64,000 bases of DNA from assembly GCF_000026545.1 (NCBI RefSeq), contig NC_011601.1; one strand, written 5' to 3'. This DNA comes from Escherichia coli O127:H6 str. E2348/69. Its GTDB lineage: Bacteria; Pseudomonadota; Gammaproteobacteria; Enterobacterales; Enterobacteriaceae. This document shows, one piece after another, positions 32,901 to 35,900 of the stretch (within the stretch, counting starts at the first letter, position 1; each line of letters starts with the position of its first letter). Made by a program: the position numbers.

Positions 32901-35900
32901 GATGCATATTATAAAAGCAAATCGTGTTTATGTGGACAAAACACCTAAAGGGCACTATACCATTGGAATATGTAAACTAAATAGATTTTTTCATTATTTT
33001 GGGATGTGTGATGAATTTGTTAATGATGCAAAAATTGCTGAGGCAAATGAAAATTTTTTCAAAAAAGGTAGTATTACTACTAATGAATTATTGGATGATG
33101 ACATTCATTTGATTTAACTATGAATTATTATATTGTAAAGTAATCAGGTAAGATATGTTAGACAGTGAGACTATTGCCTTACAGAATTCATTATTCTTAT
33201 GGATCGCCTTTCTGACTGATTTCATATTGGCGGGGTAACGGGAGTTAAGTAGAATGGCTGCGGGTGCTTGAGGCTATCTGTCTCAGGCATGAACACCAAA
33301 GGCAGATAGAGAAAAGCCCCAGTTAACATTACGCGTCCTGCAAGACGCTTAACATTAATCTGAGGCCAATTTCATGCTAGACACATGTAGGTTAGCCTCT
33401 TACGTGCCGGAAGGCAAGGAGATGTATGGGTCCACCACATATTGCAATTTTTATTCTCTTTTAAAATATATTCCACGGGCGTCATTAGTGCGAGCGCCTT
33501 GTGGGGTCTTTTGCTGTTATACAGCACCAGATATTCCGCCAGCTTCTGGTTAAATAGCGCCAGATCTTCAAAGAGTAAAATCTCATTAAATTCAATAAAC
33601 TGCTCTCTTAACGTCCGGTTAAAACGTTCACAGATAGCGTTCATTTTTGGCGTGTAGGGATAGGTCCAGAGGTGTTTGATAGCGGCTTCCTGCAGCGTTT
33701 TGTCGAAGTTTCCCAGGAACTCTTTTCCGTTATCTGTGATTATCTGGCTGATACCGACCGGGAACAACCGGGCTGCGCGGCTGAAGAAGTGATTGACGAT
33801 ATCACTGTTGAGTGACGGCACAGCCAGCGCCAGCGCGTAATTGCTGCATTCGTCGATCATGGTGATGACATAGCGACGCAGTTCGCCCATTCTGAGCTCA
33901 ATGGCGTCCATCCCAATGAGCTCACCTGTCTTTACCGGGCGGTAGTGCTTTGGCCTGCGGGGTTTGGCAGACCGCTTTTTGACAAGCAGTGCCTTCCCCC
34001 GCGATCCCAGACGCACAGGTATCATCCGCATTTTATCATGTGCGGCAGCGATCATTCTGCCGATGGTGGAAACACTCGGACAGGCCAGATAGCGCTGTTC
34101 GCACCAGGGCTTCAGGCGAACAAAAATCTGCTCTTTACCGAGGTTCGGCAGCTCTGTCCTGAGGCGTCGAATCTCTTTCAGCACATCGGGATGCCAGTGT
34201 TTTTTTCGTCGCACCAGAGGTGCCTTACTGTGCGGGATTAGCCCCTCAGGTCCTTCCTTGTTCAGTAACTGACGCCACCAGTAAAGCGTGCGGCAGGACA
34301 CGCCAAAGGCTTCAGAAGCTGCAGAAATACCGTGTTTATCCCAGAAGTGCAGAGCCTTCATTCTCATTGTTGCTATATCAGCCATCACTGAAAGCCTCAA
34401 CGCATAATCGGCCGTTTGGTAGTACTTAGGATAGCCAACCATCAGATGCTGCATTTGCATAGTGCAATCTCCCCTTACTTATCCGGAGGCAATTGCAATA
34501 TCTCTGTGAACTTACACAGGAGAAGCAGGCTATGAAGCAGCAAAAGGCGATGTTAATCGCCCTGATCGTCATCTGTTTAACCGTCATAGTGACGACACTG
34601 GTAACGAGGAAAGACCTCTGCGAGGTACGAATCCGAACCGGCCAGACGGAGGCCGCTGTCTTCACAGCTTACGAACCTGAGGAGTAAGAGACCCGGCGAG
34701 GGAGAAATCCCTCGCCACCTCTGATGTGGCAGGCATCCTCAACGCACCCGCACTTAACCCGCTTCGGCGGGTTTTTGTTTTTATTTTCAACGCGTTTGAA
34801 GTTCTGGACGGCGCCGGAATAGAATCAAAAATACTTAAGTAGCGCGCAGGGATAAGAGGGATGGTCCCTTAAAGGGGAGAGCTAATTATCCGGAAGGATT
34901 CTGATGATGAACATCGAAGAACTGCGTAAAATTTTTTGTGAAGATGGCCTCTATGCTGTGTGCGTTGAAAATGGAAATCTTGTTAGTCATTACCGCATTA
35001 TGTGTTTGCGAAAGAATGGGGCTGCGTTAATTAATTTTGTGGATGGTCGAGTGACAGACGGATTTATCTTGCGCGAAGGTGAGTTTGTCACTTCATTACA
35101 GGCACTGAAAGAGATCGGAATAAAAGCAGGCTTTTCAGCTTTTGCAGAAGAATAAACTCATCTACAATCTTGCGCGGGGCTGAACTCCCGCTGAGTAACA
35201 CCGTGCCACCGGAGAAAACCGATGGCACGCAACGTAAAATATTACAATTCTGATAATTCGCCCGTTCTTGCCTGCACGCACGAGCGGTATTCTCACGCAT
35301 TCAAGTCTGAATGGTTCCAACACCCTCCATGTACTGAAGAGCAGGCTGAATGGACAATTCAGTGTTACCGCAGGCGCGGATACGAGGTTAAGAAAGCCCT
35401 CAGCCTCGATTATCGTCACTGGATAATCTATGTCAGGCTCCCTTATTCCGAACGCTCACCGCGCCCATCCCGCACATACCAGCAACGGATCTGGAGGTAA
35501 CGTGCGGATATTACTTCGACCTGTTCTGGTACCGGAACTTGGGCTGGTGGTCCTTAGGCCGGGCCGTGAATCCATGCAAGTATTTCATAACCCTCGAGTG
35601 CTGGTGGAGCCTGAACCGAAAAGCATGCGCGGTCTGCCGTCCGGAGTCGTCCCTGCCGTTCGCCAGCCGCTGGCGGAGGATAAATCATTACTGCCATTTT
35701 TCAGCGATGAGCGGGTGATTCGTGCTGCTGGCGGCGCTGGGGCACTGTCTGACTGGCTGTTGCGTCATGTCAAATCCTGCCAGTGGCCTCATGGTGACTA
35801 TCATCACAGTGAAATCGTCATACATCGTTACGGTACCGGCGCGATGGTGTTGTGCTGGCACTGCGACAACCAGTTGCGTGACCAGACATCCGAATCACTC

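Follow-up and report, generated by a model that had tools for sequence, protein, structure and literature searches.

We investigated a hokD-type hok/sok locus, a toxin–antitoxin (TA) system of type I, in a 64,000-nt stretch of contig NC_011601.1 of Escherichia coli O127:H6 str. E2348/69 (assembly GCF_000026545.1), hereafter the window, by which we mean this stretch at its full length. The locus lies in a lambdoid prophage integrated beside potC, where it is flanked by a PtuA/PtuB-like gene pair and a rem/DUF968/rusA block, and it is physically split by an insertion sequence (IS) of the IS481 family. A first-pass annotation had described all parts of a hok-family locus as present and divided by the IS, with the promoter, leader, mok-like start and Sok unit to the left and hok, the fbi-like element and the terminator to the right. 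This overall anatomy was confirmed (Table 1), as was the 1096-bp length of the element with GGAGA on either side, and several positions were off by 1 nt. The IS-split locus is real, and its earlier reading was right.

The hok promoter stands directly 5' of the point where the Rfam leader match begins. This match (RF01794, 'sok'; 33262–33428, + strand) covers the full model length and scores 112 bits against a gathering score of 59; its alignment decays at the IS junction, the leader part covering model positions 1–157, and it lies on the hok-sense strand, marking the conserved overlap of leader and Sok, not the strand of Sok. The leader up to the IS is 100% identical to that of an uninterrupted locus (L137). 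The mok-like start codon aligns to the mok position in the Rfam model, and when the locus is reconstructed by joining position 33374 onward to 34524 onward, the mok-like open reading frame (ORF) is in frame with hok with no stop between them, so that mok translation would yield an N-terminally extended Hok. The hok leader contains the Sok promoter, which is read from the opposite strand and falls between the mok start and the Shine–Dalgarno (SD) sequence of hok; the Sok-like RNA that would start from it folds into a hairpin plus a U-rich tail (−30.5 kcal/mol, z = −4.28).

To the right of the IS, the Hok ORF matches Pfam PF01848 (HOK_GEF) over residues 6–47 with E = 6.8e-23. The tac-like and fbi-like elements form a 5'–3' duplex with one bulge (computed at −30.6 kcal/mol), which is the closing pairing when the full-length hok mRNA is reconstructed and its minimum-free-energy fold is predicted; in the present allele the two partners lie 1.1 kb further apart than in the reconstructed locus. 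The locus shares with R1 hok/sok and with chromosomal or prophage hokD (relF) loci a Hok/Gef ORF, an RF01794 leader, tac/fbi-like pairing, a mok-like ORF, a Sok unit and a terminator. It differs in being split by an IS and in the frame of mok, since R1 mok and hok are read in different frames.

Table 1 Features of the IS-split hok/sok locus (positions in the window).
Feature	Position	Strand	Basis
hok promoter: −35 TTGGCG (33227–33232), 17-nt spacer, −10 TAGAAT (33250–33255)	33227–33255	+	Consensus scan and direct reading
hok mRNA 5' end with tac-like element, partner of the fbi-like element	33259–33273	+	Duplex with 34735–34751
hok mRNA leader including the Sok target region, severed from hok by the IS	33262–33422	+	Rfam RF01794 match
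Sok-like antisense RNA (inferred ends), with a long hairpin between a single-stranded 5' tail and a GGGGCUUUUCUCU tail	33306–33383	−	Fold; position inferred from promoter
Transposase ORF, 362 aa, rve/DDE and HTH domains	33372–34460	−	Pfam rve, rve_3, HTH_32
mok-like ORF, truncated: ATG at 33374, enters the IS, stop at 33553, 59 codons	33374–33553	+	ORF list, frame analysis
Sok promoter: −35 TTGCCT (33417–33412), 17-nt spacer, −10 TAACCT (33394–33389)	33389–33417	−	Direct reading
Left copy of the 5-bp target-site duplication GGAGA	33418–33422	.	Single GGAGA in the empty site
IS481-family IS, 1096 bp, ISKpn28 relative, ends TGT...ACA	33423–34518	−	Identical copies, shared boundaries
Right copy of the GGAGA duplication, the hok SD kept	34519–34523	.	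Single GGAGA in the empty site
hok ORF, intact, HokD-type, 51 aa, ATG at 34532 (stop codon included)	34532–34687	+	Pfam HOK_GEF, RefSeq hokD
fbi-like element complementary to the mRNA 5' end	34737–34751	+	Duplex prediction
Intrinsic terminator of the hok transcript	34756–34782	+	Terminator scan

Intact relatives of the locus were found. FORC 064 carries the same prophage module with identical PtuA/PtuB-like proteins upstream and lacks the IS; positions 31001–33422 of the window are 100% identical to it, and the match picks up again at the second GGAGA, so the sequence left of the IS is contiguous with hok in this relative. The uninterrupted hok translation-initiation region that the first-pass annotation had reconstructed proved correct: the 458-nt empty site obtained by removing the IS and one GGAGA is matched over its full length at 99.8% identity in at least 13 genomes, where it is annotated as hokD. 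The duplication also lies at the true boundary of the element, which is fixed because identical IS ends recur elsewhere with other 5-bp duplications; target duplications of this length accompany the IS at 13 site classes.

The IS has the termini TGTATGG... and ...TTACACA, with imperfect terminal inverted repeats of ~27 bp (33423–33449 and 34492–34518) that each contain ATATTGCAATT, a terminal motif reported for ISKpn28 (PMC6101004). Its transposase is labelled IS481 family transposase in RefSeq and matches NCBIfam NF033577 (IS481) with E = 1.7e-65 and 221.4 bits, just below the 224-bit cut-off; the Pfam match to LZ_Tnp_IS481 is weak. The transposase ORF has no stop within the IS and runs 51 nt past it into the hok leader, and its C-terminal tail consequently depends on the insertion site. 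The reading frame continues through the end of the IS, the duplication and then the target promoter, and on into the flanking DNA; annotated transposase lengths range over 348–372 aa in E. coli and reach 614 aa in Klebsiella.

The nearest named relatives are Klebsiella proteins labelled ISKpn28 family transposase, with ~80% amino acid identity, and the Klebsiella ISKpn28 loci have the same terminal sequence as the E. coli IS. By ISfinder convention, isoforms share >95% amino acid identity. At ~80% the E. coli IS falls short of near-identity and is not the same IS as ISKpn28; it is a close relative and, by these conventions, probably a distinct element. For its ISfinder name, the exact-sequence cluster names yielded only 'IS481 family transposase'. 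Like the E. coli element, ISKpn28 of Klebsiella pneumoniae is ~1.1 kb long, has a transposase ORF that runs out of the element, and is found beside hok: it has been reported 'upstream of hokG' in IncHI5 plasmids (PMC6339943), and its transposase co-localised with FlmC near anti-CRISPR genes (PMC12248084).

Matches to the IS occur in 1419 of 5426 complete E. coli genomes (about a quarter), many of which hold 100% identical copies; the copies in these genomes number ~1900. A scan of species-representative genomes with a 30-mer of the IS end gave 2 matches only, in E. ruysiae and in a contig of a Streptomyces assembly. The latter (L015, NZ_BAAAHF010000206.1, 566 bp, Streptomyces malaysiensis assembly) joins an E. 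coli-type hok leader to the IS end, and is almost certainly contamination of that assembly.

Insertion at this position is recurrent. An IS inside a hokD-type locus was present in 63 complete genomes, and six such prophages share with the window a distance of 72 nt from the end of the transposase gene to the hokD ATG, although their upstream cargo differs. In four loci (L003, L004, L006 and L009) the IS is 100% identical and the hok left flank is only 92–98% identical to the window; identical elements in diverged flanks argue for separate recent insertions, not one inherited event. We also looked at a sample of 12 complete-genome records, taken from those that carry a 100%-identical IS. Five hokD insertions were found in this sample, together with one IS in chromosomal hokB beside trg, one in an F-type plasmid hok beside psiA, one in the second hok of E2348/69 between cysH and iap, three at the agrB promoter beside dinQ, one 5' of ybaQ, and one at a rearranged site near yghD. 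E2348/69 carries four copies of the IS, at least two of them in hok loci. The copy in the cysH–iap hok of this strain (L008, NZ_CP059840.2 1065949–1069444) shows the duplication GACAT overlapping the hok start codon.

The duplicated bases differ between targets. GGAGA or GGAGG, coinciding with the SD, is duplicated in hokD, hokB and plasmid hok; the duplication is GACAT over the ATG in the cysH–iap hok and CACTG, 5' of the SD, in a hokA-type locus, and outside hok it is GTCCC, TGCTC, GCGTG, GAGTG or GGACA. These data bear on whether recombination and horizontal transfer could have distributed one ancient insertion into hok among prophages and plasmids, an explanation to which we give hardly any credence. 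The hokD–IS module does occur in many lambdoid prophages, which are mosaic, and hybrid flanks indicate that IS copies recombine. A single ancient event is nevertheless at odds with an IS that stays 100% identical where its flanks differ by 2–8%, with duplications that differ between hok families, and with the existence of an isogenic empty site; moreover, chromosomal hokB, the cysH–iap hok and plasmid hok are too dissimilar to have exchanged a junction.

The hybrid flanks were seen at nine loci (L047, L069, L070, L082, L093, L102, L120, L133 and L141), whose left and right flanks come from different known targets, for example an L028-type Sok promoter on the left with an L037-type flank on the right; they point to recombination between IS copies or to adjacent deletions. 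We also considered hok as the passenger of a larger transposon and rejected this, as the flanks are contiguous in one locus, the hok ORFs vary, and empty sites exist.

What stays constant from site to site is the distance from the IS to the Sok promoter. In four hok families the insertion point lies 19 nt past a conserved TAGCCTCTTAC motif. On the strand leading away from the IS, TTG comes right after the 5-bp duplication, with TAnnnT 17 nt past that hexamer, and the hok-locus targets are Sok promoters (TTGCCT-17-TAACCT, TTGCCG-17-TAAGAT, TTGATT-17-TACTCT and others), which are by far the commonest landing sites of the IS. Copies of ISKpn28 in Klebsiella follow this pattern: two are located at Sok promoters of plasmids and one lies 5' of hda. 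The first-pass annotation had stressed that the insertion lies in the hok SD itself; this is true of the present locus and is incidental, because the IS-to-Sok-promoter position is constant while the IS-to-hok-start position varies, so that the Sok promoter sets the site.

A preference of the element for the hok ribosome-binding region, that is, for a GGAGA-type purine tract and not for the Sok promoter, would fit the GGAGA or GGAGG duplications in hokD, hokB and plasmid hok, as well as a variant leader (L022/L033) that has GGAGA and no TTG. We judge it distinctly improbable, given that CACTG lies 5' of the SD in the hokA-type locus, that GACAT lies over the start codon in the cysH–iap hok, and in view of the non-hok duplications listed above; the invariant features, TTG plus a −10 at 17 nt, are on the opposite side of the duplication.

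We then quantified the promoter signal over a larger collection of junctions. A metagenome scan with a 30-nt IS end gave 120 contigs, which were pooled with the annotated loci to give 138 junctions in 56 flank classes; 19 of these classes (64 junctions) are hok leaders and 37 are not. Among the non-hok classes, 18 of 37 have TTG at an offset of exactly 5 nt from the IS end, where 1.6% would be expected (binomial p ~5e-23), and TTG is essentially confined to this offset. Eight of these 18 classes have TAnnnT at 17-nt spacing, compared with 0.9% of all TTGs in the window (p ~2e-12), with no comparable peak at the other spacings tested (8 to 26). Since three of the 18 represent a single STnc100 locus in variant forms, the independent loci number ~16. 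Thirteen classes have the same 5-bp duplication on both flanks, and 12 of these 13 show TTG with (T/C)AnnnT at 17 nt. The position and orientation of the IS relative to the promoter signal are thus reproducible beyond chance.

This precision weighs against random insertion retained by selection, whereby hits that inactivate the toxin would be favoured or tolerated and so accumulate. In evolution experiments, IS150 insertions recur in hok and ldr regions (PMC5419217), and selection probably helps to explain both the predominance of hok over other promoters and the persistence of hok sites. It cannot, however, account for a position that is precise to the nucleotide and a single orientation in diverged hok families, nor for an unchanged register at promoters whose occupation disrupts no toxin (agrB, ybaQ, STnc100 and hda). 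With TTG enriched at one offset only, selection on random insertions is largely refuted as the sole explanation, and we consider it very improbable.

Several non-hok targets resemble genuine promoters, judging by what lies downstream. At the dinQ site the Rfam AgrB match begins 7 nt 3' of the predicted −10, which identifies the target on this side as the agrB promoter. dinQ is a type I toxin locus, and agrB encodes its antisense RNA. The IS lies between the agrB and dinQ promoters, and dinQ retains its own promoter and LexA box; in the arsR/arsC–gor region of three E. coli strains (L012, L142 and L143) the IS is 5 bp 5' of the agrB −35. In a metagenome contig (L030), an STnc100 small RNA match (5223–5418) starts 11 nt from the IS, and at 55–95 nt from the IS end lie the starts of ybaQ, a manA-like ORF and Klebsiella hda, all directed away from the IS. 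An STnc100 copy is also present in the prophage of the window itself (40169–40358, + strand); its upstream sequence differs from that of L030, and this copy is not an obvious empty target.

A target resembling the IS's own terminal inverted repeats, which contain TTGCAA, was also considered; it is unsupported, as the −35 varies after TTG (TTGCCT, TTGAAA, TTGTTT, TTGACT and others).

Since the target promoter lies inside the hok leader, insertion cuts hok off from its promoter, from mok and from the Sok target while Sok stays intact, in agreement with the first-pass annotation, which had hok losing these three and keeping one copy of its SD. The Sok promoter hexamers are untouched, the IS end having replaced only the DNA 5' of ~−40. 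Transcription of Sok and of the hok leader probably continues; the transcript from the hok promoter would now enter the IS antisense to the transposase gene, and transposase transcripts, unless terminated earlier, would cross the Sok promoter and Sok. A simple consensus scan found no sigma-70-like promoter reading out of the IS into hok, which suggests that hok, now without its own promoter, translational coupling to mok and the Sok-binding region, is probably silent.

The opposite outcome, in which hok is still expressed and harmful through read-through or an outward IS promoter, with its SD freed from mok and Sok control, is in our view unlikely. The SD and hok ORF are intact, and a scan of the + strand between the hok promoter and the hok terminator found no terminator-like site. 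Against expression, besides the missing outward promoter, are the 1.1-kb untranslated antisense transcript, a likely Rho substrate, the stable carriage of the IS-split allele in the 63 complete genomes, and a small hairpin that can form over the SD from the IS end and the duplication. This hairpin, which involves the IS end TCTCTGTG...CACA and the duplicated GGAGA (34488–34523, + strand) and would cover the SD in any transcript leaving the IS toward hok, is weak and may be coincidental.

The explanation that we consider likely is a promoter-register insertion into the hokD-type locus, at a site that was chosen and not random. On this reading, an ISKpn28-like IS481-family element transposed into a complete prophage hokD-type hok/sok locus by a 5-bp staggered cut in the 5 bp directly 5' of the Sok −35 hexamer; because the Sok promoter lies in the hok leader between the mok start and the SD, the bases cut, GGAGA, are the hok SD. 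The IS end comes to lie 5 bp 5' of a sigma-70-type promoter (TTG of the −35, 17-nt spacer, TAnnnT), and the element takes a single orientation, in which the transposase gene is read in the direction of the target promoter and has its 3' end beside that promoter. The element appears to choose its target, because the same spot has been hit in many unrelated hok loci and the IS also sits beside other promoter-like sequences.

Several points weigh against this explanation. The metagenome sample pools the E. coli element with ISKpn28, because the IS-end probe is common to both. TTG is absent at the offset from about half of the non-hok flank classes; many of these have no matching duplication or end inside the IS, so that they may be rearranged. 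The L022/L033-class hok leader has an intact GGAGA duplication and TGTCAA in place of TTG at the −35; this diverged plasmid-type leader (L022, L033, L095, L122 and L147–L151) is the sole pristine class off the promoter rule. Furthermore, hok makes up about one third of the target classes, far above its share of cellular promoters, and promoter-likeness alone is therefore insufficient to explain the preference; there must also be a contribution from further sequence preference, from the strength or occupancy of the promoters, or from purifying selection acting at other promoters. Finally, the promoter scan toward hok was a simple consensus search, and the silence of hok, the activity of Sok and the mode of recognition are all deduced from the DNA sequence.

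As to how promoters might be recognised, we tentatively suggest, as a possibility that we hold with considerable doubt, that the ISKpn28 group homes to sigma-70 promoters through DNA occupied or bent by the holoenzyme, joining at ~−40 in a fixed orientation, with antisense-RNA promoters favoured. Recognition of a polymerase-bound promoter is attractive because the conserved TTG, the 17 nt and the TA...T are the positions read by sigma-70; direct sequence read-out by the transposase may be an alternative. To our knowledge, no guide RNA is known for the present element, a DDE transposon of the IS481 family.

Other features of the prophage were also recorded. The two genes directly 5' of hok (31122–33117, + strand) match the Septu anti-phage system, namely PtuA (AAA ATPase, E = 1.9e-165) and PtuB (HNH, E = 1.1e-83). 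In other prophages the corresponding slot holds a SIR2, methyltransferase or KwaB-like gene, and this varied cargo makes the slot beside hok look like a variable defence-cargo site. DicF, STnc490 and an IS009 RNA match are further prophage RNA features (24662–24713, − strand; 44643–44766, + strand; and 60269–60467, + strand), and ISEc13 and IS200C transposase genes lie at ~43265–45234 (L001 30866–32835), just 5' of the lysis genes.

An IS in a hok locus is not new in itself. Pedersen and Gerdes reportedly described, in 1999, IS-associated and presumably inactive hok loci of K-12: hokA with IS150, and hokC and hokE with IS186. By analogy, the present locus resembles these and the IS150 cases in joining an IS to a probably inactive hok. 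It differs in the IS family, in the insertion between leader and hok ORF, in a position that is fixed relative to the Sok promoter, and in the many hok families hit. Published work has noted that hok/sok genes lie close to hotspots of mobile elements in E. coli and K. pneumoniae (bioRxiv 10.1101/527788), and a recent Hok survey mentions IS elements near hok (10.1101/2025.08.07.668861). We found no literature tying IS481 or ISKpn28 to a Sok-promoter or other promoter target rule, subscription journals and ISfinder notes being outside the scope of the search.

Elements with a defined target are familiar: IS1397/ISKpn1 and IS110-family elements insert into repetitive extragenic palindromic (REP) sequences, and Ty3 and Ty1 insert at genes transcribed by RNA polymerase III (Pol III). 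The element described here is like these in its defined position and orientation relative to a recurring genomic signal, and unlike them in that the signal resembles a sigma-70 promoter, with insertion at ~−40. A single IS-split hok locus is by itself ordinary; the apparent direction of the element to promoters is what raises its interest.

The target rule, an IS end 5 bp 5' of TTG-N3-N17-TAnnnT in one orientation, predicts landing sites and flags hok genes that are annotated as intact yet are uncoupled from their control region, while the readthrough ORF explains the variable C-termini of annotated transposases. Were insertion dependent on RNA polymerase, this would be a new mode of transposon targeting in bacteria, and a bacterial counterpart of Pol III-directed Ty3/Ty1 integration; the strong constitutive antisense-RNA promoters of type I TA loci (Sok and AgrB) would then be favoured safe havens, which would account for the 'hok/sok insertion hotspots' that have been reported from E. 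coli and Klebsiella. Recurrent associations of IS elements with hok, which have been read as adaptive toxin inactivation or as gene vehicles, may, at least for this element, be mainly a matter of target choice, and as about a quarter of the complete E. coli genomes contain the IS, its effect on type I TA loci is not rare.

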